60,281 nucleotides of DNA from a virus. Taxonomy: Duplodnaviria; Caudoviricetes. Position 1 is the first letter of the stretch. Every line of letters begins with the position of its first letter. This document shows positions 1-57,843 of the stretch, piece after piece. A program made the translations under genes and the position numbers. The notes beneath the pieces are model-generated. The model saw only the letters and a program-made list of their open reading frames with translations, was not told the DNA's origin and ran no database searches. The stretch lies in the IMG/VR virus record IMGVR_UViG_3300036798_000218, positions 1-60,281 of that record; one strand, written 5' to 3'.

Positions 1-890
1 GTCATGGCTGTTGACGATGATTGGGGTACAGCAGTAGCTGGGGAGGAAGACGCATTAGTAGTGTTAGAGGTTACAACAGCGTCGGCCGGTTTGTCATCAA
101 ACTTGTGAGCCTCGCTCGACTTATCTTTAGCTTTTCCCCCAGCTGCTTTGAAGTTTGTAATCTCTTCATACACAGCACTCCTAAGTTTGAAGAAATCCTC
201 GTCAGAGATTTTATCCTCTTCTGTAATATAGATACTTTCCAATCCAGTATATTCGATTACTTTCCCGTCTTCGTCCTTGAAGTCTAGTTCCGGTAATTCC
301 AGTCGTGTCATCCCAGCAATACCGCAACTCACGTTGGCTTTCCCACTCCCTCTGGTAATAGAAAGTTTGATCCCAGGAGCCGCATGGTTCGGATCAAGAA
401 TTTGTCTCTTGTCGTCAGGATGTAGCTCTGCAATGAAATCTTGAATAGCGAACATTTGACGACGATCAAGAACCGTACCGTAAGTCTGTTTAGCCTTGGT
501 ATATTCATCATCTGATGACTCAAAATAATGTGCCATCATATATCCTTGTTCACGGGACTTGAACTGCCAGATAGGCTTTCCCCAAATCTTTTCCAACCCT
601 GCATCTTCAGCTTCAACTAATAGTTTGTCTACCCTTTCGTCTTTCCAAAACCGGAGCTTTCTATCATCCACAGGAATTTTAGTATGAAACCAAGCACGTC
701 TGATCAAACGAATGAAACCCTTGGAGTCACGATCTGGATAAATACGAAAAACATATGTGCCATCACCTAGAAAACAGATAGGAACTCCAGACTGGAACCC
801 GCCCCTTTCTTTGTATTCGCGCCGATATTGTTCAGCGTCTTCGTTTATCTTGTTGATATCTTCAGTACCAAAGCTGAAATTGAACTTCAT
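1..890 (-). CDS. Putative gp32-like single-stranded DNA-binding protein (runs off the left edge)
   Basis: Manual translation from ATG at 890 (GGAGG upstream) stays open to the window edge: MKFNFSFGTEDINKINED...GTYVFRIYPD...AWFH..., with a low-complexity tail. Absent from the ORF track because the stop is outside the window. Function inferred from the FRI-P motif and replication context. Confidence 0.5.
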   Translation of the reverse strand, partial: MKFNFSFGTEDINKINEDAEQYRREYKERGGFQSGVPICFLGDGTYVFRIYPDRDSKGFIRLIRRAWFHTKIPVDDRKLRFWKDERVDKLLVEAEDAGLEKIWGKPIWQFKSREQGYMMAHYFESSDDEYTKAKQTYGTVLDRRQMFAIQDFIAELHPDDKRQILDPNHAAPGIKLSITRGSGKANVSCGIAGMTRLELPELDFKDEDGKVIEYTGLESIYITEEDKISDEDFFKLRSAVYEEITNFKAAGGKAKDKSSEAHKFDDKPADAVVTSNTTNASSSPATAVPQSSSTAM

Positions 891-1116
891 TGTGTGGTTC
901 CTCCTGTTGCAGCTGTTCTCATGTAGTCAAGATGTTTCCAAAGCTTACCGCTCTTGATCTTACTAACCGCTTGTTGTTTTATCCCGTAATCACGTGCGAT
1001 CTCACTTTTAGTACGATGATCGTTAATGTACCGGTCCACAGCCAACAACCAGAATTAGGTTCCGGTATGTAACGAGTCTCAAATTCTCTAAGCAAATCTT
1101 CCTTTGCTATTGTCAT
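887..1116 (-). pseudogene. Internally deleted HNH homing endonuclease remnant
   Basis: The N-terminus MTIAKEDLLREFETRYIPEPNSGCWLWTG joins out of frame to an HTH tail INDHRTKSEIARDYGIKQQAVSKIKSGKLWKHL. The nuclease core is absent. Confidence 0.75.
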
Positions 1117-1493
1117 GTAACCCTCTTTTCTATAACTCTTACACCGGAATTAGCTTGTAGTTCTCCGTAAAGATGCACTGATTCTGCAATGAACTCCAAG
1201 AGAATATCAGGAAGAGATGCCTCATTACTCTTATCTCCTAACTTAGCTCTGAGAGTTAAGTATCTCACCAGCTTGGCAATACATTGTCCTGCAACTAAAG
1301 CTTCACCCCCAGGAATTTCAGCTTTCCCAAATCCTGTGACCGCAAATACCAAATCTATAATCTCAGAAACCGGATCGTAAGGTTTGGATTGAACACGATC
1401 TAAAACCTGTTTGACAACATCAAGTTCTATTGCAGTCTTCGCTGAGTTCATCGATCGGATAAATCCTGTTACTGACTTATCTTCTGCTGGCAT
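1113..1493 (-). CDS. Hypothetical protein
   Basis: 126-aa ORF tightly packed in the minus-strand operon. Confidence 0.7.
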   Translation of the reverse strand: MPAEDKSVTGFIRSMNSAKTAIELDVVKQVLDRVQSKPYDPVSEIIDLVFAVTGFGKAEIPGGEALVAGQCIAKLVRYLTLRAKLGDKSNEASLPDILLEFIAESVHLYGELQANSGVRVIEKRVT

Positions 1494-1508
1494 GAGGATA
1501 CACTCTTC

Positions 1509-2456
1509 TCATCTGCGTTTAACACCATAAGCGTTTTGTCTTAGTAGATTAGTAGCTAAAGGTTGGAATGGGTATATTTCATTTTCCCATAACTCTTTAA
1601 ATCGTTTTCTAGAAATAGAGTTTGGATCTTGCTTCCAAGGTAATCTCAGTAGAAATACGTCTTGCCTATCGAGAGCTTTGTAAACCAATCTGGCAATCTT
1701 GATACCACTTTCAAACGAGCCACCATCAGTAGCTACGTATACTCTATCAACCTTTTTTGAAAGAACTATGCCTTTTAACTGGGAGAGTTGAAATGAGCTT
1801 ATTGTCTTGCCTAAGAGAACTAGTGGACAGACAGTCCCATCTAAATGCTGATAAACTGATAATCCAGAAATCGTACCTTCTACCAATATTACACGATTAG
1901 TGTCGACGTGATTACACCATACCAATGGTTTTACTTGATCACGGACATTGGTATGACGCAAGGTACTATTAACATTTCTGATAGATAGAAAGTCAGTAAC
2001 TCTGGACAGCCCATCTGTCCATATCTTATTACAAAACACGACTCCTAATCTAGGAGTTCCTGTAGCAAGAATGTTGTAACGCAGAAGAGTTTCAGCGTAT
2101 ATCCCACGCTTCTTTACCATATAGTCGTAACAGTCGTTATTCTCTCTGATCGGAGAAGTCCAGTCACCTATTGAGAGTCTTTGGAAGGGATACCGATCCT
2201 CATCGGGGACGGTTTCAAGCTGTTGACGTATCAGTTCTGGTGTACGCAGAGCGTCTGAGATAATCACAGTTTCGCATCGAAAGCAATGCCCCACACATTT
2301 TGTCGGATTATAATAGAAATGTCCAGCAACATCAGCGGATTTTGTAAGTTCTACGCAGTACGGGCAGAGATACACTTCCTCCCTACCAGACTTCCTAACA
2401 AGAGACCTCAGGTCAAGAAATTCGCCAAAATGCCATTTCCCTTTTTCCTTAAGCAT
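1509..2456 (-). CDS. DNA primase-like protein (Zn finger + TOPRIM)
   Basis: CPYC...H...CFRC zinc finger, ILVEG TOPRIM glutamate, VYVATDG and QDPN motifs. Confidence 0.8.
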   Translation of the reverse strand: MLKEKGKWHFGEFLDLRSLVRKSGREEVYLCPYCVELTKSADVAGHFYYNPTKCVGHCFRCETVIISDALRTPELIRQQLETVPDEDRYPFQRLSIGDWTSPIRENNDCYDYMVKKRGIYAETLLRYNILATGTPRLGVVFCNKIWTDGLSRVTDFLSIRNVNSTLRHTNVRDQVKPLVWCNHVDTNRVILVEGTISGLSVYQHLDGTVCPLVLLGKTISSFQLSQLKGIVLSKKVDRVYVATDGGSFESGIKIARLVYKALDRQDVFLLRLPWKQDPNSISRKRFKELWENEIYPFQPLATNLLRQNAYGVKRR

Positions 2457-2467
2457 GAGTCACTTGC

Positions 2468-2776
2468 TCATTCGTCTCCTTTACCATTCTGACTATGCCG
2501 TATCAGATTTAGAAAAGAACTAGTAGGCCTAAATCTAACCGTATACTGAATAGTTTCATCTATACAACGTTGGTTAATATCATAGTATCGTCTTTTCTGT
2601 GTTGACGACTTCATTTGACCAAATCCACGAATATAGACAGCCTTACCATCGGAAACCTTGTCCTGAAAAATTCCAAGAAAAGAGTCCACCACAGTGCTCA
2701 CGTTCTCCTTTGTGAATCCTGTCTCCAGCACGATAGCCTTTATAATGTCGATCTTGGCATCTCTCTTAACACCCAT
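2468..2776 (-). CDS. HU/IHF family DNA-binding protein
   Basis: 102 aa with VYIRGFGQM...RRYYDIN...VRFRPT, the typical HU/IHF arm pattern. Confidence 0.9.
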   Translation of the reverse strand: MGVKRDAKIDIIKAIVLETGFTKENVSTVVDSFLGIFQDKVSDGKAVYIRGFGQMKSSTQKRRYYDINQRCIDETIQYTVRFRPTSSFLNLIRHSQNGKGDE

Positions 2777-2782
2777 ACTCCC

Positions 2783-3016
2783 TCACACTTCACTTCTTAC
2801 AGCTAAATGCTTCCATTTTTTACCACTCTTGATCTGACTAATCAAGGACCGTGCGACACCGTAATGTCGTGCTATTTCATGCTGAGTATGTTGATCATTG
2901 ATAATCGCAATAGCCTGAGCCATGTCAATCTAGCTCCACCATGGTCTTCACCCCTACGTTGACAACCTGAATACGTTGGGTCACGGTACACATCGAGATG
3001 CTTCCAAGTTACTCAT
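2783..3016 (-). pseudogene. HNH endonuclease remnant (C-terminal HTH only, frameshifted)
   Basis: Fragments RGEDHGGARLT / AQAIAIINDQHTQHEIARHYGVARSLISQIKSGKKWKHL resemble the tails of 14503..15048 and 887..1116. Confidence 0.7.
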
Positions 3017-3384
3017 GAAGTAAGCTCTTTATCATGGAATGCAGCGGCTGTAATTAATCCAGAACGTGCAGCCAAGTAGTTCTTGATGAACCGGTCACTT
3101 GGAGTACACATGAACGCAACAGCTGATAGAGGTACTTGGATTTCATTAGTGACTATAGGGTTAGCCCTATGAAATACTATAAAATTGAACTTATTGGCAC
3201 TACTAACATCACGACTTAGAAGAATAGGGTCCTTTACAATAGCAACAGAATCCACTACTCTTACAATATCCCCAATGAACTCGATATTTGCACTAATAGA
3301 AACAAACTTGATACCTACTAAAGGATGGATAGGAACTGGATCAGGTTCAGGCCCACGGGTTAAAAAGTCTTTAGTACCATCCAT
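3013..3384 (-). CDS. Small beta-rich protein, possibly Sm-like fold
   Basis: 123 aa, IGDIV...IVKDPILL...Y...SGL pattern seen in T4-like phage small proteins. Confidence 0.45.
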   Translation of the reverse strand: MDGTKDFLTRGPEPDPVPIHPLVGIKFVSISANIEFIGDIVRVVDSVAIVKDPILLSRDVSSANKFNFIVFHRANPIVTNEIQVPLSAVAFMCTPSDRFIKNYLAARSGLITAAAFHDKELTS

Positions 3385-3385
3385 C

Positions 3386-3625: not shown

Positions 3626-3626
3626 C

Positions 3627-4253
3627 TTATGCCTCTCTACAGTTTTTAATATGATGAATCATCCTAGGTCCTTTACCAACTTTACCACAACGGCATTCAT
3701 ATTTTTGCCTACTGTTGTGATTAAGACTTTCAGCAGATTTACGTCCTCTTTCGACACATTGTTCTGGAGCCACCCTACGACTCCATTCAGCAAGCTGTTC
3801 TGAAGTCGCAGCATGTACTCCTACCCCAAGCTCAACTGCCCTACGTCCACCCGAAGATAAACCTGCACCTAAACTACCCCATTCAGATTTTTGTTTAGAA
3901 GTCACCGCATGTATTCCTCTTCCCAGTTCGAACGCCCTGCGACCTGCCCTAGGTGCTACTTCTTTACTGTTATCACTTTTCGATTGCCATCTGAAATTCC
4001 ATCTGTTATTCTCAGTGTCAAAAACGTATCCTTTATTATGGTCAAATCTACCTACAGTAGGAGTTTTCATTCCAACGGGAATCATAGCAATGACTTCCAA
4101 CCATTTGTTAAAAGATTCTAGACATCTAGTAAAACTACACGCTATCCCATATTTTTCAGCCCTTATTATCATATTAATGAAATACTTATAATACTCATGA
4201 CTTGCGTATTCACAGTTACCTACATCACCAAAGATAACAACAGAATCATCCAC
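3627..4253 (-). CDS. Putative HNH-like homing endonuclease with C-terminal Zn knuckle
   Basis: GRFDHNKGY...NRWNFRWQSKSDN resembles the DRID..GY...N.RW....N HNH variant. Internal GRRAxELGxGxHAxTSxQ repeat and C-terminal CRCGKVGKG..M..HI. Confidence 0.6.
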   Translation of the reverse strand: MDDSVVIFGDVGNCEYASHEYYKYFINMIIRAEKYGIACSFTRCLESFNKWLEVIAMIPVGMKTPTVGRFDHNKGYVFDTENNRWNFRWQSKSDNSKEVAPRAGRRAFELGRGIHAVTSKQKSEWGSLGAGLSSGGRRAVELGVGVHAATSEQLAEWSRRVAPEQCVERGRKSAESLNHNSRQKYECRCGKVGKGPRMIHHIKNCREA

Positions 4254-4265
4254 TTTACGCCTCTC

Positions 4266-4691: not shown

Positions 4692-5270
4692 TTACGACTC
4701 TAAGATAATAGGATCTTCTGTTAGTGTAATAGGACTGTCATCCACATATCCACGATTAGCACAAATAGCAGACAAGGTGTTAACACTCTTAAGTCCATAC
4801 TTTTCTAATAACATTCTACGTGAATCACGTGGTGCCCTTACACGCCCCACCTTCATTAACTCATACTCATCCCGCAAAGCATTAGCTTGCTCCATAGATA
4901 GAACAGAACGTCCCTTTGATCCACGAATAAATTGTGTTCTTAAGTATGGTAAAGCAGAGAGCAAAGCACCACTAGCTTGTTCACGCTTCGGTTCAGATAG
5001 CCACTTCCATAACATCGCAATAACAGCCTGTACTCGCAAATGACTAGCAATAGAGTAAACATAATATGGTTTGCCATTTTTGTACCTAGGTTTATACGGC
5101 CCACGAACACTCCCAATCTGTACGGTTTTTACGAACCTATCAAGAGGACGACGATCGGCCTGTGCAACAGTTAAGGTCAATTCACGACGCTTTCGACCGC
5201 GGTAGAATATAGATCCTTCTCCATCAAAGAAACCTGCCGCCCAAGCTAGCTCATGTGTATCAAATTGCAT
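4692..5270 (-). CDS. LAGLIDADG-family homing endonuclease
   Basis: LAWAAGFFDGEGSI motif, downstream VAQ and KREQA, helical C-terminal extension. Confidence 0.85.
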   Translation of the reverse strand: MQFDTHELAWAAGFFDGEGSIFYRGRKRRELTLTVAQADRRPLDRFVKTVQIGSVRGPYKPRYKNGKPYYVYSIASHLRVQAVIAMLWKWLSEPKREQASGALLSALPYLRTQFIRGSKGRSVLSMEQANALRDEYELMKVGRVRAPRDSRRMLLEKYGLKSVNTLSAICANRGYVDDSPITLTEDPIILES

Positions 5271-5282
5271 TATTACATACTC

Positions 5283-8048: not shown

Positions 8049-8765
8049 TTACCTAACTTCTTGACATTTTAGTGTAGTTATATGATTTTTCCATCTATTT
8101 CCTCTACCTACCCTGTTACAAGCAGGACACACACGTTCTACTTGGGACTGTGCACTTCCATTAATCTTCGCTTGCTCAGCAATCTTTTTCTTAGACTCCG
8201 GGTTAGCATGAATCTTACGCATTTGCTCAAGACCACGTTCAGAATGTCTTCTTGCAAACTCTAGGTCAGCATGGAGCTTATACATATGTTCACTACTACG
8301 TTCAGAATGTTTTCTTGCAAACTCTAAATCAGCATGAAGCTTACGCAGTGCTGCACTACCAGATTCAGCATTTCGTTTTACAAATTCAGGATCGGCGTTC
8401 AGTTTACGTATACGATCAGCTTTTGCTAAACGCTCTTCATGATTAATACCTGTTGCACCTTCGCCTCCATCAGTAAAATTATAAAGAGTACCTGTATTAA
8501 GATCATGCCTGCCAAACTCAGCAATAAGTTCTTTCTCGCGAGCAAAGGCGACATCTTCACTCTCAACATACTCCTTCCTGATACGAATTTTAAGTCCAAG
8601 CTCGCCGCATAATCTAAGCATGTTATTCAAATGCTTATTATGACTTCCACGCATATGCATATAGACACGCCTTCCATAACCTTTACCAACGTAGACCGGA
8701 CAATTATTTTTATCAGGCCTGGGATCATAAATTACATAGACGTAGAACTTCTTATCTATAGCCAT
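8049..8765 (-). CDS. GIY-YIG homing endonuclease
   Basis: FYVYVIYDPR..YVGKG..R..E..LYNFTDGGEG, KLxADxEF helical repeats, C-terminal CPAC knuckle. Confidence 0.85.
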   Translation of the reverse strand: MAIDKKFYVYVIYDPRPDKNNCPVYVGKGYGRRVYMHMRGSHNKHLNNMLRLCGELGLKIRIRKEYVESEDVAFAREKELIAEFGRHDLNTGTLYNFTDGGEGATGINHEERLAKADRIRKLNADPEFVKRNAESGSAALRKLHADLEFARKHSERSSEHMYKLHADLEFARRHSERGLEQMRKIHANPESKKKIAEQAKINGSAQSQVERVCPACNRVGRGNRWKNHITTLKCQEVR

Positions 8766-11172: not shown

Positions 11173-11538
11173 TCAGACATTCTTCTCCCTTTCCTTGTCA
11201 ATCATATCTAGTGTAACAACTAACTGACCTAACGTTTTAGCATCGTAAACGTCACTATCAAACTCATCTTGAATTGTCCGTTTGCGTTCCTCGCTGTGTC
11301 GTGGAAGAATCCACAAGCCGTAATCCATGAGATTGATTATGATGGACGGCCTTTTATCTGGTCGAGTGATCCTACCGCATTTCTGGAGAGCCTGTCTAGG
11401 CTCTTTGCCGTCAATCAACACAATAGCGTTGAGCGGTGAATCCAAGTCAAGCCCTTCCTGTAAGTGTTGCGTCCCTATGATACCTCGTATTAAAGTTCCA
11501 CTATATTTTCTTAACAATTCTGGCGTTATCTTAGACAC
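11173..11538 (-). CDS. UvsW-like SF2 helicase, part 3 (motifs V-VI)
   Basis: GTQHLQEGLDL (motif V) and QKCGRITR (motif VI). The GTG start overlaps the TAG of the inserted endonuclease. Confidence 0.85.
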   Translation of the reverse strand: MSKITPELLRKYSGTLIRGIIGTQHLQEGLDLDSPLNAIVLIDGKEPRQALQKCGRITRPDKRPSIIINLMDYGLWILPRHSEERKRTIQDEFDSDVYDAKTLGQLVVTLDMIDKEREKNV

Positions 11539-12293
11539 TACACCACCTCATCGTCAGGATCAACTATTGGCAACAGACTAGCCGTCTCATAAATTCTATC
11601 AACAACGTATTCTGTGTTCTTAAAGACTTCTTCATTGCTAAACCTCAGTACTGCCCAACCGCGCGATGTAAGAAATTCGTCTCTCTTTTTGTCACGCTCT
11701 ATAATATGATTGTGATAACTATCGAGTTCTATACCAAGTTTGAAGTCTGGGACACTGAAGTCCAGAATAGGTCCAATAAGCCCTCTTCCTACTCCTTCAC
11801 CTTTTACTATTCTTTTAAATCTTCTATCTTGCGAAATAGGATTCAATTTTCTGAACCTCGAATTATTCCATAGTTTCCACTCAGCTGGAGTCATCCCTTC
11901 ATGCTGATCCCTAAAGTCCCTAAGTACCTTGCCTGAAGTACGCCACCCAAATCCTGAATTAGGGTCAGAATTTAGTCGTCTAGCTAACTTTGTCATATTC
12001 TTTCTAAACTCAGGATCTTTCCATTGTTCTTCCAATCCAAATGGCTTTTCTTTGTGCCTGATTAAACTAGCACATCCCTTACTACAAAAGTCTTCGTATT
12101 TTCCACTTTTATAGTTACAGCTATTATCACACTCAGAGTTTAGACATTTTTTCGTTTTATGACCTTCAACTATTCCGGCTATATGTTGATCATAGTATTC
12201 AAGGAAGCTTTTATCTGCATGATCATAAGCAAAGTGTCTTGAAAGTGATTGATATCTTTGGTACTCTGCCCCACACAGTCTACAATTCCACAC
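11538..12293 (-). CDS. DUF559/Vsr-like endonuclease with Zn fingers, inserted within the helicase
   Basis: ILDF..KLGIELDS..H...DKKRDEFLTSRGWAVLRFSNEEV, with an N-terminal C2H2 and CLN..C..FCS..C. Confidence 0.85.
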   Translation of the reverse strand: MWNCRLCGAEYQRYQSLSRHFAYDHADKSFLEYYDQHIAGIVEGHKTKKCLNSECDNSCNYKSGKYEDFCSKGCASLIRHKEKPFGLEEQWKDPEFRKNMTKLARRLNSDPNSGFGWRTSGKVLRDFRDQHEGMTPAEWKLWNNSRFRKLNPISQDRRFKRIVKGEGVGRGLIGPILDFSVPDFKLGIELDSYHNHIIERDKKRDEFLTSRGWAVLRFSNEEVFKNTEYVVDRIYETASLLPIVDPDDEVV

Positions 12294-13038
12294 CCTCGGC
12301 CTCCATTATCTTCTTGTAGAGTTCTTCAGAAACTTCTACGTCTCCTCCCCCATACCATATAGCAATTCTATCACTATTCAAGAGTCTAAAAATCCTTCGT
12401 CCAAGTTCTTTCTCACTCACATGAACAATCGTATTATAATCTCTGTCGATCAAGAGTCTTATAACACTAGCAATCAGGGATAGTCTCTCTGTATTCTTAT
12501 ACAACAGTGCTCTGATCTCATGCCAATCACTAGTCTTCTGAGCGGCCCACTTGTCCTTTGGCCAAATATAATGAAGATTTATCAGCTTCGGAATATTGAG
12601 AAAGTCTTTTAGTTCTTTAGCTGATTTTTCGTAGATCACTGGCCCGCAGACAGATATGGTCATAGCATCATCAATCGACATACCTGAAAAATTCATTGCT
12701 AGATTAGCAGATTTATCCAGAGGCAAAGCGCTAAATCCATACGAACGAGTCACATTAGGTAAAGCCATAAAGATTGTATGCCACGTATGACAACTCGCGT
12801 GATGTGCTTCATCAGCGATAATCGCAGATATCAACTTCAACCGTTCAGTATACTTCCCGCTAACTATATCGTTGTAAACTACTCCAGGTGTCGTAATTAT
12901 TATACAGCTATCTTGATTGGAATCAACTATCCAATCTCTCCAACTTCTAGTACATTCTGACATTCCAAATAATCTTGCATTAGCTACTGTTTGATCTTCA
13001 GTAGTATGACTTGGGTAAATCAGCAGAACTATGCTCAT
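12280..13038 (-). CDS. UvsW-like SF2 helicase, part 2 (motifs Ia-IV)
   Basis: LLIYPS (Ia), ITTPG (Ib), IIADEAHH (II), GFSA (III). Confidence 0.88.
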   Translation of the reverse strand: MSIVLLIYPSHTTEDQTVANARLFGMSECTRSWRDWIVDSNQDSCIIITTPGVVYNDIVSGKYTERLKLISAIIADEAHHASCHTWHTIFMALPNVTRSYGFSALPLDKSANLAMNFSGMSIDDAMTISVCGPVIYEKSAKELKDFLNIPKLINLHYIWPKDKWAAQKTSDWHEIRALLYKNTERLSLIASVIRLLIDRDYNTIVHVSEKELGRRIFRLLNSDRIAIWYGGGDVEVSEELYKKIMEAEGVEL

Positions 13039-13039: not shown

Positions 13040-13504
13040 TTACATCATAAGGTTATAAGCTAAAACAAGCTGCATCACACCCTTTCCAGAACCAGTCGGA
13101 CATTTCACCGTTCCACAATGCTTTTTACGACAGGCTTCTAGAGCCTCGTAGAAGTACCAGCGCTCCCTGCCATTGACCAGCCACTTAGGAGAGCTTAAAA
13201 CACACGGAGGAATTTCAATGCAAGGAAGGACAGTGCGCTCAGGCTCGATACTAGCAAAACTGATAGAGCAAAAAGGATTTGCTTTTGCCAGAAATAACAG
13301 TGCGCCCAGTCCACACGTAATTGTTGAATCCTCATTTTCAGTATAGACAGGGTCATACGATGTTGTCTCCTTAAATCGTCCATGATCCTTACCTCCAACA
13401 ATACGTTGTTTAACACTAGTCCTGGCAGTAAGATCGCCTTCAAGAATGCCCTTAGGCACTGTACAGGCTAATCCCTGCACCTTAATAGAGACTTCCCGAC
13501 TCAC
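13040..13504 (-). CDS. UvsW-like SF2 helicase, part 1 (N-terminus and Walker A)
   Basis: Ends GTVKCPTGSGKGVMQLVLAYNLMM*, one nucleotide before the start of part 2. Confidence 0.8.
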   Translation of the reverse strand: MSREVSIKVQGLACTVPKGILEGDLTARTSVKQRIVGGKDHGRFKETTSYDPVYTENEDSTITCGLGALLFLAKANPFCSISFASIEPERTVLPCIEIPPCVLSSPKWLVNGRERWYFYEALEACRKKHCGTVKCPTGSGKGVMQLVLAYNLMM

Positions 13505-14502: not shown

Positions 14503-15048
14503 TCATTCCAAATGTTTCCATGTTCGATCATTACGAATATGAGAAATAGCTTGACGTGAAACCTTATATTGCATTGCTAACTGTTTAACTATTCCAGCTG
14601 ATTCAGGTCTGCTTTTGATATCAATAACCTGAGATTCTGTAAGCTTACACCTACCATTACGTTCACCCTTATTATTTGTTCCATGTTGGATACGATCTTG
14701 TTGGTTTTCCTTAGGTGTACCCCAGACAAGATTTTCAGGCCATCTGTTGTCAGACCTATTCCCATTAAGATGACGACATTCTTGTCCAGGAGGACAAGGC
14801 CCCCAGAATTGATTCAAGACAAGGATGTGAACATATATAAGCAACTGACCTTTACCGACTCTCATATATCCCGTAGAGGTATCACAGGTTAATTGCCTAA
14901 GCTCAACTTGTGTAGCGATTCTTCTTCCGCGTAAAATTGCTCCTGGCAATGCCCGAATACGTCCAAAGTTAGAAACCTGATGAAATGGCCATTCAGCTTG
15001 ATGGTAAGGAATGGTCTTTATATCTTTCCAAATCTCAAGCTCATTCAT
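14503..15048 (-). CDS. NUMOD4-HNH homing endonuclease with C-terminal HTH
   Basis: EIWKDI..QVSNFGRIR, VHILV..F, CRHLNGNRSDN..NLVWGTPKEN, GERNGRCKLTE..V..I. Confidence 0.92.
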   Translation of the reverse strand: MNELEIWKDIKTIPYHQAEWPFHQVSNFGRIRALPGAILRGRRIATQVELRQLTCDTSTGYMRVGKGQLLIYVHILVLNQFWGPCPPGQECRHLNGNRSDNRWPENLVWGTPKENQQDRIQHGTNNKGERNGRCKLTESQVIDIKSRPESAGIVKQLAMQYKVSRQAISHIRNDRTWKHLE

Positions 15049-24934: not shown

Positions 24935-25303
24935 ATGAACAGAATTGAAATCAAATCTTGGCGTAAAGACCCTACCATCGCCAAACTGGTCAAGGCCACT
25001 TTCCCCAGCTATAACAAGCGGGCAGTCTACATCATAGCTACTGAAAGCGTTACACTCTATGATCTAAACTGGAATGGGGGTACGAAAAATGTCTACAAGG
25101 TCTGCACCTTAGATGGAGAACCCCGTGGCAACTCGGACAAATACAGTGCAATGGACCCCTGGGACAACCCAGCAGAAGGCAAGACGCTTCCAATCCCTTT
25201 CGGCTTTTGCGTAATTGAGGGGGGTTTTTTCTGTGGTAAGGAAAGCACATTGACGATCCGTGTCAACCCTGCGGACATGCCGAAGTACCTGACATGCGAA
25301 TAG
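24935..25303 (+). CDS. Hypothetical early protein
   Basis: AAGGAG RBS, 122 aa. Confidence 0.8.
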   Translation: MNRIEIKSWRKDPTIAKLVKATFPSYNKRAVYIIATESVTLYDLNWNGGTKNVYKVCTLDGEPRGNSDKYSAMDPWDNPAEGKTLPIPFGFCVIEGGFFCGKESTLTIRVNPADMPKYLTCE

Positions 25304-26103
25304 TAGTCAGTAATTACAACCTTGAACAAATAAATAGCGGAAAGTTCTACGTCTACGTGATCTATGATCCTAGACAAAATAATGTTTGTCCTATCTATGT
25401 TGGCAAGGGTAAAGGAAAGCGAATAGCTGTTCATGCGCGTCGTGCTTGTAATGACCACTTAAATAGGACACTCAGACTATGCAACAAGCTTAGACTTGAT
25501 GTTCCGGCTAAAATTACAGCTTATTTTACAAATGAGGATGCAGCGTTCCTTCTTGAAAAGACACTGATCGCGCAATATGGTCGACTTAATCTAGGTACCG
25601 GAACTCTCTACAACTTGACCGAAGGTGGTGAAGGTGTAGCAGATATTAGCCCTGAGACGCGTTTGATACATGCTGAGTGTATGCGCAAGAATAACGCTAA
25701 CCTAGAGTATCAAGAGAAAATACGTAAGGGACAGCAAAAGTATCAGGCTGACCCGATTGTCGCAGAAGCAAATCTTGAGCGTCTGCGTAAGATCAATGCC
25801 AATCCAAAATTTGCGAAAGCAAATCTTGAGCGTCTGCGTAAGTACAATGCCGATCCAGAGTTTCGGAATAAAGCACGTAAGGAACAGCAAAGGTATTACA
25901 CTGATCCGATTCACGCAAAAGAGCAGTCAGAACGTACGCGTAAACAGAATGCCGATCCGGAGTTTCGGAAGAAACTACGTGAAGGGCATCACAATCATTA
26001 CGCTGAACAGCGAGCAAAAAGAGGACCTCAGCCATGGGTAGTGGCAGGCGTTCCTAGAGCTACATGGTATTATCGCCGAAGAAAAGCAAAGAAAGCGCTC
26101 TAG
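25294..26103 (+). CDS. GIY-YIG homing endonuclease
   Basis: FYVYVIYDPR..YVGKG..LYNLTEGGEG, NADPEF repeats, C-terminal PWVVAGVPRATWY. Confidence 0.85.
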   Translation: MRIVVSNYNLEQINSGKFYVYVIYDPRQNNVCPIYVGKGKGKRIAVHARRACNDHLNRTLRLCNKLRLDVPAKITAYFTNEDAAFLLEKTLIAQYGRLNLGTGTLYNLTEGGEGVADISPETRLIHAECMRKNNANLEYQEKIRKGQQKYQADPIVAEANLERLRKINANPKFAKANLERLRKYNADPEFRNKARKEQQRYYTDPIHAKEQSERTRKQNADPEFRKKLREGHHNHYAEQRAKRGPQPWVVAGVPRATWYYRRRKAKKAL

Positions 26104-29870: not shown

Positions 29871-30641
29871 ATGAGTGTACTTCAAATCGAATACGTACAT
29901 GGAAAAGGTAATGGGTTTTACGTGTACGTAATCCATGACCCTCGTCCAAGCAAAGACAACCATCCTATTTACGTTGGTAAGGGTAAAGGAAACCGTGTTT
30001 ATACACACGTAAAGAACAGCCATAATAGACACCTAAATAACACATTAAACCTGTGTCTAAAGATCGGGCTTAAGGCTGTGACTAAGATATTCCATGTTGA
30101 GAATGAGGACGTAGCATTCCTTCTTGAAAAGACACTGATTACGCAATATGGTCGGTATGATCTTGGTACTGGCACTCTTTACAATTTAACCGATGGCGGT
30201 GAAGGCGCGTCTGGTGTTGGTCCTGAAGCGCGTTTAATTATGGCTGAGAATGGACGCAAGGTCTTAACTAATCCAAAGTATCGAAGGAAATTATATGATG
30301 GACAAAAAGAGTATTGGACCGACCAAGCTAATGTAGAAGCACAAGCTGAGCTTATGCGCGAGCAAGTACGTGAGGGGCAACAAAAGTATTGGGCTAACCC
30401 GGCCAATAGAGAAGCACAAGCTGAACGTGCTAGTAAGCAAGCGGCTGAACGGCGAGCAAAGGAAGGGCCTAAGCCATGGGTAGTAGAAGGCATTTCCAGG
30501 GCTACGTGGTATCGCCAAAGGAAAGCAAAGGAAGGACCTCAGCCATGGGTAGTGGAAGGCATTTCCGAGTCTACGTGGTGTCGCCGAAGGAGAGCAAAGA
30601 AACCGGAGATGGAGGTGAAAATTGAAGGAATTTCTCAATAG
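29871..30641 (+). CDS. GIY-YIG homing endonuclease
   Basis: FYVYVIHDPR..YVGKG..LYNLTDGGEG, duplicated PWVVEGISxxTW tail. Confidence 0.85.
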   Translation: MSVLQIEYVHGKGNGFYVYVIHDPRPSKDNHPIYVGKGKGNRVYTHVKNSHNRHLNNTLNLCLKIGLKAVTKIFHVENEDVAFLLEKTLITQYGRYDLGTGTLYNLTDGGEGASGVGPEARLIMAENGRKVLTNPKYRRKLYDGQKEYWTDQANVEAQAELMREQVREGQQKYWANPANREAQAERASKQAAERRAKEGPKPWVVEGISRATWYRQRKAKEGPQPWVVEGISESTWCRRRRAKKPEMEVKIEGISQ

Positions 30642-40607: not shown

Positions 40608-41654
40608 CTATAGGGACTTGGTTGTCCTATTAAATGCTCCAGTAGGCCAATTAGTCTCAGTCCAAACCTTAAATCCTACCGAGTGTTCTTTAGCGTAAGC
40701 ACATCCCGCTTTCAATTTAACTCTAGTTGACTCATCAGATAACTTGTAACGAGGCTTAATCTCAACTATTTCAAGAGACTTATCAATATATTCTATTAGT
40801 AAATCCGGATAGTAATTACGGATTCTACCTTCATAATCGTAAGGTATGAAAAAAGGTTCAGAAAAATACCTTAAAACCAAAGGATTATTGTCTAAATAAA
40901 CATAAGCATTTTGCTCCCAACTTGACCTGTAAAAAACATCTCCAACTTTAGGAGACCTATGCCACCCGGAATTACCAAATCCACCATGCAATTTACCATT
41001 TTCCAAGAACATCTTTTTATAATGTGGGTTATTCCACATCGCCTTGAACATTTCAGACTTTTCTCTTTTCATATCATCTGAAAAAGCATTACTAATTGCC
41101 TTTGATAGTTTATCTCTATACTCAGGTCTATTCCACCTCTGCCTCGTAGTGACTCCCGTTTTTCTTCTTTGCTCTGGATTCCCATATCTTCTAACTAATG
41201 CTAATGTAAGATTTTTTCTATGTTCTTCAGAACGTTTCTGCCCTAAATTAGCCTGTCTCATTAACTCTGGGAATTCATCAGAATGAGACTTCCAGGGAGA
41301 TTCTACTTTACACTTACAAGACTTGCTACAATACGTATCGTATCCTGTAGTAAAACTACCAAATGAAACACGTTTTTTACATACAGGACACACCACCATC
41401 TCTTTAATGTTATTGACATAACAATATAATCTTTCTCTCAGTGCAACCGTATCACCAAGAAAATTAGTTGACTGTTCGATCTTGCTAAGAAGACCATATC
41501 TTATCAAGAGGTTTTTAGCTCTAGTAGAACAACGAAAACTACCGTCTATCTCTCTTACTAAAACTCTAGCTTCTTCAAGCTCACTAACCAGTCCCATATC
41601 AACATCCACGATCTCAAAATTCATTCTTACCTCCTCTAATGTTACACCTAGCAT
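40608..41654 (-). CDS. TnsA-N/gp4-like PD-(D/E)XK endonuclease with Zn ribbon and NUMOD-like repeats
   Basis: YRSSWE..LD...SEP..IPY...YYPDLL...VEIKP, CPVC..YCS..C. Confidence 0.8.
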   Translation of the reverse strand: MLGVTLEEVRMNFEIVDVDMGLVSELEEARVLVREIDGSFRCSTRAKNLLIRYGLLSKIEQSTNFLGDTVALRERLYCYVNNIKEMVVCPVCKKRVSFGSFTTGYDTYCSKSCKCKVESPWKSHSDEFPELMRQANLGQKRSEEHRKNLTLALVRRYGNPEQRRKTGVTTRQRWNRPEYRDKLSKAISNAFSDDMKREKSEMFKAMWNNPHYKKMFLENGKLHGGFGNSGWHRSPKVGDVFYRSSWEQNAYVYLDNNPLVLRYFSEPFFIPYDYEGRIRNYYPDLLIEYIDKSLEIVEIKPRYKLSDESTRVKLKAGCAYAKEHSVGFKVWTETNWPTGAFNRTTKSL

Positions 41655-51279: not shown

Positions 51280-53489
51280 TAGCTAAATCCCTGACCTCCT
51301 AATGTCGCCATACCAACGTCAGAGAAAATTGCACCAGAAGGTGACTGGGACGGACTTATTATTGCAGGATGAGGCGGTGCCTGTAGTCTCTCTTCTTCGT
51401 GGTCTTCGGTTTGAATACGATGTGCTGTATCATCCAACATCGCAATTCCATGATGCATATCAGATGCAGTAGGCATATCTCTACCAACACCAAGATCAGC
51501 ACGTTGGCCAGTATGAAAACCTTCGGCATGATCTTCTCTCGGAGAATACATAATAGGATGTGATGCAGAAGATCTAGAAAGGTCTTGTCCACGAAGTTCT
51601 CTAAAAGCCTGTGCAGAAGGCGCCTTAGTTGGCTGAGATCCAGGAACAGGGCTATAACCACGAGCCTCTGTAGTCGCAGCACCACTGGTAGCTGCTAGTT
51701 GCTTTTGAATAAATCCAGAATGCTCTGGCGACAACTTATATTTTTCACTAATGCCTTCTGAAGGCTGTTTACCTGCTGTAACACCTTCTGGTAAATTCGC
51801 CCCAATATATCTAAGATACGCACCACCTTGAAGGGCTGACTCTTTCATAGAGCCAAACACCATCTGAGAAGCAGGTGCATTGTAGTCCAGTATATCAGGA
51901 TGTTTCCCGGCTGGACCACCAGGACCTATATCAGAATGAGGCAGAATAAATGATTGTCCAGCATTTTCTCCACGCTCTGGTGTCACTAGATAATATCCAC
52001 CAAGAGTTTCGCGACCTCGACGTCCTGGCTGTCCCAGAGGGCCTTTCCCTTTCGGTGTCCAAAGATTATACCCATATGCAATGCCTGGGGTTTCTTGAGG
52101 CAATCCGCTTTGTGCTGGACCTATAGGCTTAGTACGATCAGTATAAGTAGCTCCGGTTTCTGGATCAGTATATGTGACTGATTTACTTCCAGTTGGACCT
52201 GTATAATAAATTGTTGACGTAGGCGGGTGAAATGTTTGGTCCATTGGATCAGAAATAGCAGGCTTAGCAAGAGGGGGCCTCCCAGCGTTAGGGTCTCTAT
52301 GACCTTTATCGTCTTTAATAGGCGTAACAGTAACAGGTGAATCTTTTGCCTGTACCACGGAAGGTTTAGTTACGACTTCAGACCTGCCACGAGAACGAAC
52401 GTGTTCAGGCCCTCTCTCACCAACAACAGCTCTCCTACGTGGGTGTACTACTCCACCTTCAGCTAAGAATTTGACACCGCCACCGACTACGATATTGCCT
52501 TTTTGAAGGGTCCGTAATATCTCAGCTAGTAATTCAGTATGCACCTGTAGAAACTTTATAATCGTATCCTCTTTCTGTTGATCAGCTGAAACTGCGTCAA
52601 ACCCACCAAGAAGATGTACACCACCTTCTATAGGACCAGCAGAAACTGGAGGATCAGGTTGCGATGAAGGAACAGTCTTTCCCTTCCCTTTTGGATTTTT
52701 ATCTGGCTCTGGCGTATCAGAATCACTTGTTACCTTCAGGCCTAAACCAACACCAACAGCTGCGATGAACCCTAACCCTATAGCTTTACCAATGCCAGGA
52801 GCCGCCTTCACCAAAGCCCTTCCTATTGCAGTTCCTGTAGCCGCACGACCAATTGCACCAGCAAAACCTCCACCACGGCCGCCGACACTCGGGACACTAG
52901 CCCCCATAAAACCACGTTGTGGTATCTTATGAGGAGAAAAGAATCTGTAAATACCTCTAAAAACATCAATCGTTAACTTAAATCCTTCTCCAAGGATATG
53001 GAAAGTTTCCTTGATAGCTTGAGCGTTTTCTTGTGCTGCCTTTACCAGTAGTCCAAGTCCAGGATCAATAGCAGTGGCAGCTGCTGTTGTAGCAGTACCT
53101 ACAGCTCCTCTACCTGAAAGAGCTTGATTACCTAGGCCAGTTCCAAATTTCTTGAGATGTGTAGTTAATTCTTTAAGATCACCTATACCTTTGAGAGCTA
53201 CAAGTGCTTCAGCAAGTTGTCTTTGTAGTTCCGGGGTTATACCTTTCTGGGAAGAGTCTTTTGCTGCTTGCTTAAAAGCTTCTCGTAAGGTAGTCAAGAT
53301 CGTAACTACCTTCTCGGTATTAGCTTTATCACCTTTCAATAAGTCAACAACCTTACTCAGTTCGTTAGTATTGTTATTTGATAGCTTATCAATAGCCTTA
53401 GTTAATTCTGCTATAGCACCTGACGCAATATCCCCCATAGGGATAGGACCAGCAGTAAGAAACTGGCGAGACATTTCAGACAAGATCAT
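51279..53489 (-). CDS. Tape-measure-like paralogue
   Basis: The N-terminal ~200 aa are highly similar to 46975..51279. LAEGGVV..VGERGPE motif. Start at 53489 or 53474. Confidence 0.75.
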   Translation of the reverse strand: MILSEMSRQFLTAGPIPMGDIASGAIAELTKAIDKLSNNNTNELSKVVDLLKGDKANTEKVVTILTTLREAFKQAAKDSSQKGITPELQRQLAEALVALKGIGDLKELTTHLKKFGTGLGNQALSGRGAVGTATTAAATAIDPGLGLLVKAAQENAQAIKETFHILGEGFKLTIDVFRGIYRFFSPHKIPQRGFMGASVPSVGGRGGGFAGAIGRAATGTAIGRALVKAAPGIGKAIGLGFIAAVGVGLGLKVTSDSDTPEPDKNPKGKGKTVPSSQPDPPVSAGPIEGGVHLLGGFDAVSADQQKEDTIIKFLQVHTELLAEILRTLQKGNIVVGGGVKFLAEGGVVHPRRRAVVGERGPEHVRSRGRSEVVTKPSVVQAKDSPVTVTPIKDDKGHRDPNAGRPPLAKPAISDPMDQTFHPPTSTIYYTGPTGSKSVTYTDPETGATYTDRTKPIGPAQSGLPQETPGIAYGYNLWTPKGKGPLGQPGRRGRETLGGYYLVTPERGENAGQSFILPHSDIGPGGPAGKHPDILDYNAPASQMVFGSMKESALQGGAYLRYIGANLPEGVTAGKQPSEGISEKYKLSPEHSGFIQKQLAATSGAATTEARGYSPVPGSQPTKAPSAQAFRELRGQDLSRSSASHPIMYSPREDHAEGFHTGQRADLGVGRDMPTASDMHHGIAMLDDTAHRIQTEDHEEERLQAPPHPAIISPSQSPSGAIFSDVGMATLGGQGFS

Positions 53490-53910
53490 TACTCTGCGTA
53501 GAATTAATAGGCTCAACAAATTCTAGGTGATCTACTATAGGACACCTACTTGCACCTTTATTAATATGTCCAAGCATACCTACTCCCTTTCCTCTCTTTC
53601 CACATCTAGGACAGATATAAAATAATCTAGCATTGTGATTCGCACTCAAGGCCGCTGCTCTTTGAAGTTCTCCAGTTTTTGAATTATGTTTAGGACTAGC
53701 AATAGACGCTCGCCAAGCTGTCCCTATAGCAACCCCACTCTTTCCCAAAAGAGCCGAAGCTTTCCCCGCCACAGATGACTTCTGTGACCTCTGTTCTGGT
53801 GTTAATCTAGAAAACGGCTCAGCTGCATTCTCAGACCATTCTTCCCATCTAAAGTTCCACCTACTCATTTCAGTATCTAGTTGATGATGAGAGTATATTT
53901 GATTCGTCAT
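53476..53910 (-). CDS. Truncated HNH-like endonuclease with Zn knuckle, inserted at the 5' end of the tape-measure-like gene
   Basis: RWNFRW...N and CPRCGKRGKG..M..HI are shared with 3627..4253. GGAGGT RBS. Confidence 0.65.
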   Translation of the reverse strand: MTNQIYSHHQLDTEMSRWNFRWEEWSENAAEPFSRLTPEQRSQKSSVAGKASALLGKSGVAIGTAWRASIASPKHNSKTGELQRAAALSANHNARLFYICPRCGKRGKGVGMLGHINKGASRCPIVDHLEFVEPINSTQSNDLV

Positions 53911-53935
53911 TGTTACCTCCAACTAAGTTCAGCCA

Positions 53936-55308: not shown

Positions 55309-55446
55309 CTACCTCCTACTTTCTATGTAGTTGGCCAAAGCACGGATACGCTCTGGATCTTCTTTCAATTGTCCAAGTGCCATATTACAGTTCATAGGAA
55401 ACTCTTCATTACCTTCCATCAGTGCTTCAATCCAACATTCTGCATC
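55309..55446 (-). pseudogene. Endonuclease VII-like remnant
   Basis: NCNMALGQLKEDPERIRALANYIE matches the Endo VII C-terminal pattern CN..LG...D....L....YL. Confidence 0.6.
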
Positions 55447-56207: not shown

Positions 56208-56219
56208 AACGTATAGTCC

Positions 56220-57052
56220 TTACCCGGTAAACGTAGTAGTAGTACCGCCTATACCACCTGACAATCCTTGCCCAGAGATAGCGTCCATATCACAGTAGTC
56301 GAAGCTCCAAGTGATATCAGGAGCCACTGCTGTACTCTGAGCCATCTGAAGAGCTATGGCAGGATTGGCAATAGGAAATAGTCCATAAAGATAGTTGGCA
56401 ACTATGGGATTATTCGGGTTGTCATACATCTGGATTTTAGCAGTAGATTGAATGTCAGTCTTATTGGCGCCCACCCCTGTGATCCAGTTGTATGCCGTCT
56501 TCATCCATGAAGCGATGGCAATACGGATTTCCGAATTGGTGCCTTCGACCAGAGTTGTCCTCCAGGTATGGCTGAACCTGATCCGCCCGCCATAGACCAG
56601 CGTAAATCCAGCCAAGTCCACTGGCACCTGATCAAGGGCTATTCCAGGTAATTCAGTCGCAGTACAACGAAGACTCAGTAACTGGGAGGAGATGCCACCT
56701 CTCGCTGGAGATATTGTCATTTGGAATTGATACCTGATCTTCGCTAGAGTTCGCTAGGCTCTAACCGTTCCTTAGAGGAACTGCTCATAGTTACCTATGA
56801 GAGGAGACTATATCATCAACCACTCGGGTTGTGTGGTGCTTCGGGTCGCTTGACCCTACTCCCTCTCGGGATAGTCGTTACACGTTCCCCTTACGGGGCT
56901 CCGCTCGGTATTGTCCTAGCTTACGCAGCTAGGAGTTCCACCGAATTCTCCACATTGTCATTAGCGAATTGCTTCACTACGGGGCTAAAAATTCAACCCT
57001 TTAACGGATCCACCAATCCTTGCACGTCATTGATGGTAACTGGACCTGCCAT
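56220..57052 (-). CDS. Tail tube protein (gp19-like), spliced: exon 1 56996..57052, exon 2 56220..56732
   Basis: GAGGAG RBS. Exon 1 MAGPVTINDVQGLVDPLKG joins in frame to YQFQMTIS..C..TELPG..GRIRFSHTW..LFP..ITWSFDY (189 aa). Confidence 0.85.
56733..56995 (-). ncRNA. Group I self-splicing intron without ORF (263 nt)
   Basis: The 5' exon ends in U and pairs with a GCCC guide. Core elements GAAUUCGGUGGAA, AAUACCGAGC, AACGACUA and GAUAUAGUC (P7 pairing GACUA/UAGUC). Terminal G. Removal restores the frame. Confidence 0.9.
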
Positions 57053-57075
57053 TGCTGTACTCCTCTTTCGTGTTG

Positions 57076-57843
57076 TTAATCTACGTAGTATAAATTTGGA
57101 TTGTCCGGAGTTACTGTACTATGTATCTGACACCATTCGTCCGCCATTTTCTTCCACGGACAACTGTCAGTGTGATGCGTATCTTTCTCACCACAATAAG
57201 GACATATGATTTCTTGGGTATCAAGATTTGTATCTTCACAGAAGAAGATCGGGCTATCCAAAGTCAGTTGTACGTCAAATCTATGTGGACAGTTATCAAA
57301 GTGCCATCTGGCCATAGGGCCACCTCCGCCTTGGGCTGGACAATAGGGACATTTGACTGTTTGGTGAAATCCAGTCTTACCTAGCTGAGTCACATGCTTC
57401 CCCTTTGCAAGTTGTGAGAAAGCTCCAGCCCTTCCAGTCTTGCCATCTTTAAGCTTGTTATCCAGACTTTTAGAATGATGAAGAGAACTAGCTGCAGAAG
57501 CTTTTTGAGCTACTCCAGTTTGAGTTCCAGTCAATCCCAATTGAGTAACGTGAGTTCCCTTAGTTATAGCTTTCTCAAATGATCTCTTACCTATTTCAGA
57601 TCTTTCCTCCAAGGAAACTTTATTATTCCAATTATACATATAATGCGCACCTCGATCATATCGATAATGATCAGCCCAATACCACTCTCTATCACCTGCA
57701 AATCTATCTCCAGACTCGATAGGAATAACCTCCAGAATTTCTACGGTATAACCCTCCCATAATCCTTGTTGACGACACCTATCTTCTACAGATTGGTTAG
57801 TACATCCGACTTTTACGCCTACTACATGATAGATCGTATACAC
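57076..57843 (-). CDS. GIY-YIG-like free-standing endonuclease with Zn knuckles
   Basis: YTIYH..KVGCT...R...ILE...RE, CPYC..GGG.M.RWHFDNC, second CPYC. Confidence 0.65.
   Translation of the reverse strand: MYTIYHVVGVKVGCTNQSVEDRCRQQGLWEGYTVEILEVIPIESGDRFAGDREWYWADHYRYDRGAHYMYNWNNKVSLEERSEIGKRSFEKAITKGTHVTQLGLTGTQTGVAQKASAASSLHHSKSLDNKLKDGKTGRAGAFSQLAKGKHVTQLGKTGFHQTVKCPYCPAQGGGGPMARWHFDNCPHRFDVQLTLDSPIFFCEDTNLDTQEIICPYCGEKDTHHTDSCPWKKMADEWCQIHSTVTPDNPNLYYVD

Follow-up and report, generated by a model that had tools for sequence, protein, structure and literature searches.

The DNA examined here, called the window throughout, is the entire linear IMG/VR record IMGVR_UViG_3300036798_000218 (60,281 bases; a virus of the Caudoviricetes), in which homing-endonuclease-like genes are densely interspersed among replication and tail genes. 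We identified 13 such items, nine full-length genes and four remnants (Table 1), close to the figure of about 14 proposed in an earlier reading of the letters made without database searches (here the sequence-only reading). The nine full-length genes span 6,621 nucleotides (nt), or 11.0% of the window, and the share rises to about 12.5%, as calculated from coordinates, when the remnants are included. One full-length gene lies inside an SF2 helicase gene, and another stands beside a tail-tube-like gene that contains a group I intron.

Table 1. Endonuclease-like genes and remnants, helicase pieces, and parts of the intron-bearing tube gene (window coordinates; aa, amino acids)
Feature	Position	Strand	Description
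Remnant	887..1116	-	Two short ORFs in different frames (979-1116, 887-1048); weak HTH Pfam matches
Remnant	2783..2923	-	C-terminal DNA-binding module; 92% over 38 aa to residues 178-215 of the gene at L002 16344-17015
FamX gene	3627..4253	-	208 aa; HNH-like N-terminal motif (by eye), helical repeats, C-terminal Cys/His zinc finger; free-standing insertion
LAGLIDADG-type gene	4692..5270	-	192 aa, single motif; LAGLIDADG_3 21.8 bits (cut-off 22.5); phrog_5046 5.8e-13
GIY-YIG-like gene 1	8049..8765	-	238 aa; phrog_314 3.1e-14; PDB GIY-YIG domain protein 5e-4; C-terminal zinc finger resembling that of FamX
Helicase piece C	11173..11538	-	121 aa; C-terminal SF2 motifs; aligns to G001 residues 392-505
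DUF559 (Vsr-like PD-(D/E)xK) gene	11538..12293	-	251 aa; DUF559 2.2e-16, REase_MTES_1575 5.7e-7; N-terminal C2H2-like finger
Helicase piece B	12280..13038	-	252 aa; DEAH box; Pfam ResIII, phrog_16; aligns to G001 residues 158-386
Helicase piece A	13040..13504	-	154 aa; Walker A; aligns to G001 residues 2-153
HNH_3 + NUMOD4 gene	14503..15048	-	181 aa; Pfam HNH_3 8e-14; phrog_59 2.2e-32; free-standing between WYL-domain and DprA-like genes
GIY-YIG-like gene 2	25294..26103	+	269 aa; phrog_314 1.5e-8; start overlaps upstream gene by 10 nt
GIY-YIG-like gene 3	29871..30641	+	256 aa; phrog_314 1.5e-11; Pfam GIY-YIG 15.1 bits (cut-off 22.6); end overlaps next annotated start by 20 nt
TnsA-like (PD-(D/E)xK) gene	40608..41654	-	348 aa; Tn7_TnsA-like_N 4.6e-12; PDB TnsA 1.6e-4; between gp25-like gene and 748-aa baseplate gene
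Remnant, FamX without N-terminal part	53476..53922	-	148 aa; 34% identical to 3627-4253 over 133 aa; just upstream of 746-aa tail ORF
Remnant, candidate Endonuclease VII C terminus	55321..55392	-	PF02945 positions 58-81 of 82; 16.6 bits, E 3.5e-4 (cut-off 23.6); 45-aa open frame
Tail-tube-like exon 2	56220..56732	-	98% identical to R343 homolog
Group I intron, ORF-less	56733..56995	-	263 nt; Rfam RF00028
Tail-tube-like exon 1	56996..57052	-	ATG at 57052, 19 codons, own Shine-Dalgarno sequence
Endonuclease-like gene	57076..57843	-	255 aa; FamX-type repeats and zinc fingers; differing N-terminal domain; between sheath gene and intron-bearing tube gene

Annotation with Pfam and PHROGs places these genes in a recognisable phage background. 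Replication and recombination genes form a block on the minus strand, from about 15,700 down to 1, with a WYL-domain gene, a DprA-like gene, the SF2 helicase, an Mre11/Rad50 fusion, HU, and a Toprim primase, and a tail block, from 60,281 down to 32,000, comprises the sheath, a tube-like gene, baseplate genes, two large open reading frames (ORFs; one with a lysozyme domain), and two tail-fibre paralogs. A search for tRNA genes in the window found none, and a megablast comparison of 49 kb of it with isolated phages gave no match; the closest isolates are T4-like and other large myoviruses, with 30 to 38% identity in the sheath protein. CheckV estimates the completeness of the contig at 33%, and the window in all likelihood represents roughly one third of the genome of a large T4-like myovirus that endonuclease genes have heavily colonised.

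Four related viral lineages served as references. The 113,838-base contig G001 is syntenic with window positions 1 to 31,344 at about 60 to 80% protein identity; R343 comprises loci L012, L015, and L020, with a near-identical contig behind L014 and L019, and its tail proteins are mostly 60 to 98% identical to those of the window; R1373 comprises loci L013 and L024 and is mostly 42 to 69% identical; and the remaining references are the shorter contigs L021, L022, L023, and L025.

The families named in the sequence-only reading (HNH, LAGLIDADG, GIY-YIG, DUF559, TnsA-like, AP2, and Endonuclease VII) held up to different degrees. The HNH_3, DUF559, and TnsA-like assignments exceed Pfam cut-offs; the LAGLIDADG and GIY-YIG assignments score below theirs, as does Endonuclease VII, which is present as a weak remnant; and a six-frame scan of the window for AP2 (PF00847) gave no match at an E value of 1 or less. 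The LAGLIDADG-type protein aligns with I-MsoI in the PDB across the LAGLIDADG motif (E 0.079), and the three GIY-YIG-like genes are paralogs within phrog_314, annotated as homing endonuclease, with mutual identities of 43 to 46% and a GIY...YIG...R pattern that can be read by eye in all three. The DUF559 protein matches PDB entry 3hrl at 1e-3, and neither the scan of viral contigs nor a word-index search returned a close homolog of it; the HNH_3 gene reaches 53.7 bits in a scan of its own genome. A recognised homing-endonuclease nuclease fold is thus present in seven of the nine full-length genes, the other two being the full-length members of a family that we call FamX.

FamX consists of the gene at 3627-4253, the shortened ORF at 53476-53922, and the C-terminal two thirds of the gene at 57076-57843, all of which have helical repeats and a Cys/His zinc finger in common. 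No Pfam domain matches the family, and its metagenomic relatives are few; a G001 gene at 99684-100388 is 34% identical to 57076-57843. Some members carry an N-terminal motif that reads as HNH-like, and an hhalign comparison of this motif with the HNH_3 set gave a weak alignment (E 0.011, probability 3.8%), the same comparison with the GIY-YIG-like trio was negative, and so were sequence searches of the PDB with FamX. An Atlas lead (0.91-0.93) that placed 57076-57843 in a NUMOD3/GIY-YIG class was rejected, as neither the Pfam scans nor hhalign gave it any backing. DNA-binding modules recur across nuclease classes: a zinc finger of the FamX type also closes GIY-YIG-like gene 1, and the N-terminal region of the DUF559 protein resembles that of TnsA-like genes in the relatives (36.5% over 52 aa; L012 9223-9378 and L024 8769-9512).

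Two of the four remnants are fragments of a gene type that G001 keeps intact as a 223-aa gene (L002 16344-17015). The remnant at 887-1116 matches residues 5-33 of that protein at 66% and residues 183-219 at 65% by BLASTP, and the remnant at 2783-2923, which corresponds to its C-terminal part, is paralogous both to ORF 887-1048 and to the C terminus of the HNH gene. Collapsed endonuclease remnants occur in both genomes: in the slot that corresponds to 29871-30641 (G001 111914-112077, about 160 nt), G001 carries a mini-ORF of about 40 codons that resembles fused HNH_3 N and C termini and looks like a collapsed HNH endonuclease gene.

Related genomes had been proposed as the place to look for empty alleles, and they supplied them in every case: for each of the nine full-length genes (9/9), one or more related contigs lack it at the homologous site. 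At seven of the endonuclease sites of the window, G001 has either nothing or different content. Where the window has 3627-4253, 8049-8765, and 14503-15048, the genes on either side directly adjoin each other in G001 (91079|91095, 94469|94488, and 98650|98684, respectively), an unrelated 61-aa ORF occupies the slot of the LAGLIDADG-type gene, and an unrelated 220-aa ORF occupies that of 25294-26103; there is also no insert at the site of the remnant 887-1116. In the tail block, the gp25-like and baseplate genes that flank the TnsA-like gene are adjacent in R1373 (L013 9985|10001), R343 has a gene there that is 37% identical, and 57076-57843 is missing in five relatives (L021, L022, L023, L024, and L025). 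At the position of 53476-53922, R343 carries instead an HNH_3 gene on the opposite strand that is apparently frameshifted.

The families are also unevenly distributed between genomes. Genes of the HNH_3 type occur at four other sites in G001 at 52 to 56% identity, with weaker copies besides, and R343 has one. The GIY-YIG-like, LAGLIDADG, DUF559, and TnsA-like genes have no homolog in G001. Movement from site to site, decay, and replacement are known behaviours of homing-endonuclease genes. Every endonuclease ORF in the window has its own start and stop and is out of frame with its neighbours, and none is embedded in an intron or intein.

This distribution bears on whether some or all of the nuclease genes might instead be functional phage genes, such as packaging-associated HNH, repair, anti-defence, or exclusion genes, that vary between strains and are not selfish. 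The idea draws some support from FamX, which has no assigned nuclease fold, from the occurrence of DUF559 and TnsA-like folds in repair and transposition proteins as well, and from a publication according to which a T-even homing endonuclease can serve its phage (PMC13096335). We nevertheless consider it improbable, given the precise presence and absence of the genes at intergenic slots, the several diverged copies at differing sites, the decayed remnants, the insertion within a conserved helicase, and the pairing with ORF-less introns in two different genes, which is described below.

The helicase is a single 508-aa ORF in G001 and three ORFs in the window, with the DUF559 gene between pieces B and C; the G001 helicase has no DUF559 gene. 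The intact homolog confirms the earlier view that an endonuclease gene interrupts the helicase, and no intron was detected there, an Rfam search of positions 10800-13700 giving no credible match at an E value of 10 or less; an intein is excluded because the helicase ORFs differ in frame. Piece B ends in 18 non-homologous residues and overlaps the start of the DUF559 gene by 14 nt, and piece C has a GTG start that overlaps the DUF559 stop by 1 nt, with its Shine-Dalgarno sequence (GAGGTGG) inside the DUF559 ORF. No gene is inserted at the junction of pieces A and B, which is collinear with G001 save for a one-base shift that makes a TAA, followed after 1 nt by an ATG in another frame. An independent assembly of the same sequencing run reproduced 10,900-13,558 with 0 differences, which excludes an assembler artefact only, since the underlying data are the same.

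Two further observations concern this stretch. Contigs of the independent assembly break at about 10,900-10,929 and 13,529-13,558, and mean word depth, which is 15.8 and 14.1 on the two sides of the helicase/DUF559 stretch, falls to 11.2 within it; a variant allele may co-occur here. We also considered the end of piece B and the start of piece C as a duplicated target segment and rejected this candidate, as the similarity is not significant at the DNA level (p=0.37).

The three ORFs could in principle be the wreck of a gene that the DUF559 insertion and a frameshift killed, in a phage that dispenses with the helicase. The A/B break does resemble a simple 1-nt shift in otherwise collinear sequence, piece B has no recognisable Shine-Dalgarno sequence, and dN for the pieces (0.28 to 0.34) is about double that of neighbouring genes (0.13 to 0.18), which fits relaxed constraint. 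On the other hand, none of the pieces has an internal stop over its 154, 252, or 121 codons and all keep their motifs, an ATG follows the stop at the A/B junction after 1 nt, and the Shine-Dalgarno sequence of piece C is a good one. In comparison with G001, pN for the pieces is 0.23 to 0.27 and pS is 0.52 to 0.78, synonymous sites being near saturation; pN well below pS indicates purifying selection on the pieces. We also observed that pS is 0.70 in piece B and 0.78 in piece C, compared with 0.55 to 0.64 in neighbouring genes, and these higher values would fit flanks of the endonuclease gene that were imported from a more distant donor.

What speaks most directly to the fate of the pieces is the recurrence of the same breakpoints elsewhere. 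An exhaustive protein search with piece C as the query gave four closest matches, P0011, P0013, P0014, and P0015. P0014 is full length (536 aa), as are most of the more distant matches. P0013 (368 aa; 72% identical to piece C) joins the B and C regions in one protein, and its homology, preceded by 14 unrelated residues, begins exactly at the A/B breakpoint of the window; P0011 (123 aa; 64%) begins with the first residue of piece C itself; and P0015 (120 aa; 61%) is a stand-alone C piece whose homology starts after about 24 unrelated residues. Because both breakpoints recur in diverged lineages with conserved sequence, the split forms seem to persist and probably work, and we judge the loss of the helicase unlikely. 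The sequence of events that we favour is that the DUF559 gene landed inside the SF2 helicase and that a second break, which has no endonuclease, produced the three ORFs; most likely, the three pieces would be translated separately and then reassembled, as is the case for NrdA of phage Aeh1.

A second association between an endonuclease-like gene and an interrupted host gene is found at the other end of the window. The Rfam group I intron model (RF00028) matches 56784-57004 on the minus strand over its full length (model positions 1-253 of 253) with 74.3 bits (cut-off 50) and an E value of 5e-17, the only Rfam match in the window both at the gathering threshold and at E values up to 0.5. The predicted splice sites conform to the rules for this class, with a 5' exon that ends in U, a U.G pair in P1, and a G as the last base of the intron (56733). 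Joined at these sites, the exons reproduce the uninterrupted tube gene of five relatives; across the junction the match is exact for L021, L022, L023, and L025, and L024 is similar there; the 19 residues of exon 1 match the first 19 residues of L021, L022, and L023 exactly, and the N termini of L025 and L024 are similar and uninterrupted. We conclude that the tube gene is interrupted by a group I intron whose splicing is predicted from these alignments. The upstream endonuclease-like gene, 57076-57843, is separated from exon 1 by a 23-nt spacer that contains a strong Shine-Dalgarno sequence.

The intron and this gene vary together among the relatives. Both are present in the window and in R343 together with its near-identical twin contig (behind L019), where the same intron follows a FamX gene with an HNH-like head, and both are missing in L021, L022, L023, L024, and L025. 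R1373 has a second group I intron (79.4 bits, L024 9552-9777) after about 9 codons of its sheath gene, and the gene directly upstream (247 aa) combines a zinc finger with a TnsA-like domain (region L024 8769-10001). According to an excerpt of a published account (PMC3984707), a free-standing endonuclease gene beside an ORF-less intron is the layout that goes by the name of collaborative or trans homing. The likeliest reading by analogy with that layout is that 57076-57843 and the tube intron are a candidate collaborative-homing pair, in which the intron would disrupt the target of the enzyme in its own genome and travel with the endonuclease gene. Presence or absence of the two together is as the excerpt leads one to expect; the differences from known cases are that the hosts are tail genes (tube in the window, sheath in R1373), that the intron lies 9 to 19 codons in, that the adjacent gene is of the FamX type, with no assigned fold, in the window and TnsA-like in R1373, and that the target site is only a candidate.

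A bolder view, for which we claim only tentative standing, covers both the helicase and the intron observations. Two homing sites would be conserved across the helicase group, and the enzyme would function naturally in two or three pieces, with lineages keeping differing breaks, coupled translation, and non-covalent assembly of the pieces; FamX and the TnsA-like genes would be new families of active homing endonucleases that pair with ORF-less group I introns situated a few codons past the start of late tail genes (tube and sheath), each pair moving together and the 3' flank of the endonuclease gene supplying the ribosome-binding site of the tail gene.

A tape-measure-like gene had been named as a second gene with an endonuclease inside it, and here we found no such case. 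The two large abutting ORFs in the tail block, 51279-53519 (746 aa) and 46975-51279 (1434 aa), are each uninterrupted, and a search for nuclease domains in them revealed none and only a lysozyme domain. The nearest element, the shortened FamX ORF, lies upstream of the first of them and not within a gene. The N-terminal stretches of about 240 aa share 59 to 60% identity, so that the two ORFs look like tandem paralogs. In L022 and L023, matches to both ORFs fall in a single stretch downstream of a 348-aa gene, which suggests that these relatives have one large gene at this position; separately, the middle of the 1434-aa protein, with the lysozyme domain and a higher GC content, has no counterpart in R343.

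Most of the endonuclease genes stand free in very short slots within long blocks of genes on the same strand, and their starts overlap or abut the upstream stop. The sequence-only reading took such wiring as the core of a dedicated system, independent of introns, in which translational re-initiation and recoding of the target, used repeatedly across nuclease families, would limit the cost of the elements. The junctions themselves are real: the median gap at same-strand junctions is 7.5 nt where an endonuclease gene is involved (n=20) and 18 nt elsewhere (n=47), and 75% of the former compared with 51% of the latter are no longer than 20 nt, figures that are approximate because each gene was taken to start where its longest ORF does. 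The two groups do not differ significantly (Mann-Whitney p=0.099), and tight stop/start junctions are a property of the whole genome and not of endonuclease genes in particular. The statement that these genes often carry the ribosome-binding site of the next gene stood in part, as the Shine-Dalgarno sequence of the next gene, read by eye, is inside the endonuclease ORF in 3 of 10 genes (3627-4253, DUF559, and 29871-30641) and in a spacer of 18 to 48 nt after the endonuclease stop in four more. Other expression signals gave little; the T4 late-promoter motif is no commoner than expected (2 occurrences against 3.2), and sigma-70-like promoters and terminators in positions 1-20000 are at chance level.

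A duplicated initiation sequence might also be counted in favour of such a cost-limiting system. Of the 10 endonuclease genes tested for flanking direct repeats, one, 3627-4253, has an imperfect repeat of about 20 nt that contains a Shine-Dalgarno sequence, a stop, and a start (p about 0.007, the best of 10 tests), as if the initiation region of the downstream gene had been duplicated upon insertion. The same insertion has replaced the final few codons of the upstream gene relative to G001, which is the only change of a neighbouring gene that we found in the direction of recoding; recoding of a target was nowhere shown. The tape-measure-like case is absent as well, and the group I intron in the tube gene is at odds with the description of the cassettes as intron-free and as working without splicing. 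The proposed novelty also falls away, since the papers cited here, which are represented by excerpts, already describe the arrangement and its interpretation for T4, Aeh1, and other phages (PMC2988022). The intron and this literature largely undercut the proposal, and we regard it as having very little chance of being correct.

The explanation that we consider highly probable from the sequence comparisons is that free-standing homing-endonuclease genes with at least five nuclease folds, which share and swap DNA-binding modules, have colonised the genome of a T4-like myovirus. Each gene lies in a short slot between host genes of co-oriented blocks, and in one case inside a host gene, and relatives either lack it or hold another element. 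To judge from the families to which they belong, the enzymes would cut endonuclease-free alleles of co-infecting relatives, and recombinational repair would copy the gene and its flanks into the break, a process known as intronless homing; expression would come from read-through transcription and from coupled or weak translation starts.

A number of observations weigh against this explanation or parts of it. The left half of the window is covered by one close relative only (G001), and all of the relatives are metagenomic contigs. The Pfam scores of the LAGLIDADG, GIY-YIG, and Endonuclease VII types are below cut-off, and the Pfam models NUMOD3, SegE_GIY-YIG, T5orf172, and MUG113 have no match anywhere in the window. 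The HNH and HNH_3 models do not match the FamX genes, AF2 models of these are too poor for a fold search (pLDDT 57.6 for 3627-4253 and 36.6 for 57076-57843), and neither Pfam, hhalign, nor AF2 assigns a nuclease class to them, the intron-adjacent 57076-57843 included. For the helicase, the doubled dN has to be set beside the evidence of purifying selection, a search for RNA runs containing the sequence of this region yielded none, and the contigs that encode P0011, P0013, and P0015 were not recovered from scans of metagenome and viral contigs. The junctions of the endonuclease genes, finally, are not distinguished statistically from those of other genes.

Comparison with described systems places most of these features in known territory. 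Phage T4 has 15 endonuclease genes, five of whose ORFs overlap upstream ORFs, and translational coupling or ribosome scanning has been suggested as the means of control (PMC2988022). The window resembles the T4 seg and mob genes as described there in that its small nuclease ORFs sit tightly between conserved T4-like myovirus genes and vary among relatives, with starts that overlap or abut the upstream gene, several families per genome, and degenerate copies; its repertoire is broader, with DUF559, TnsA-like, LAGLIDADG, and FamX genes beside HNH and GIY-YIG-like genes. Pectobacterium phage CB7 has 23 endonuclease genes of the HNH and LAGLIDADG families, some of them in splicing-competent introns and one in an interruption that does not splice, and its HNH endonuclease ORFs amount to about 7%, according to an excerpt of its description (PMC7344957). 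The window and CB7 are alike in having many endonuclease genes in one myovirus genome, with free-standing as well as intron-associated forms; relative to CB7, the window, which is known from sequence alone, has a denser load (about 11% of 60 kb) and more folds, all of its genes are free-standing, and its single intron is ORF-less.

The helicase has its closest parallels in host genes split by mobE (nrdA of Aeh1) and mobA (T4 topoisomerase), and the insertion of seg43(25) is associated with the split gene 43 of phage 25; the same excerpt reports evidence of activity for split NrdA and for the split polymerase (PMC2988022). As in the nrdA/mobE and topoisomerase/mobA cases, a gene that relatives have in one stretch is divided into separately encoded polypeptides with an endonuclease ORF between them, and as in the nrdA/mobE type, there is no sign of an intron or intein and start and stop codons overlap. 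The window differs from that type in its SF2 helicase host gene and its DUF559 insert, in that reassembly and activity are here only predicted, and in the second break without an endonuclease that makes three pieces of the gene. A narrow literature search, which did not extend to supplementary tables, returned no endonuclease-split phage helicase, and this is not proof that none is in print.

Three other features of the window lie outside these subjects. The sheath ORF (57937-60281) runs off the end of the contig, and the ATG at 60153 is not its true start because the sheath of relatives begins about 25 residues ahead of the first residue encoded in the window. The tail-fibre genes (33079-36867) are two adjacent paralogs, 56 to 57% identical, and R343 and R1373 likewise carry two. 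An ORF at 9285-9902 (205 aa, phrog_2164 of unknown function; region 9074-9902) is inserted relative to G001, and profile searches found no nuclease mark in it.

The window is a rich example of a known phenomenon and not a new kind of system. To what has been described, it would add a helicase that a DUF559 gene splits, candidate homing endonucleases of the TnsA-like and FamX types, and tail genes that contain introns. It is of interest for how dense and varied its elements are, for the three-piece helicase with its recurrent breakpoints, and for the pairing of endonuclease genes with introns in tail genes. The elements form a compact natural set of homing endonucleases in which nuclease heads and DNA-binding modules have been shuffled, and such enzymes are raw material for work on target recognition. 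The SF2 helicase joins a short list of essential-type enzymes that seemingly tolerate being split by a selfish gene, and its breakpoints, as they recur in other lineages, mark positions where the fold can be cut. The two additional candidate collaborative-homing pairs, both in structural genes of the tail, bear on the origin of mobile introns. Current concepts are left unchanged by these findings and are extended to new genes and nuclease families in an uncultured soil phage.

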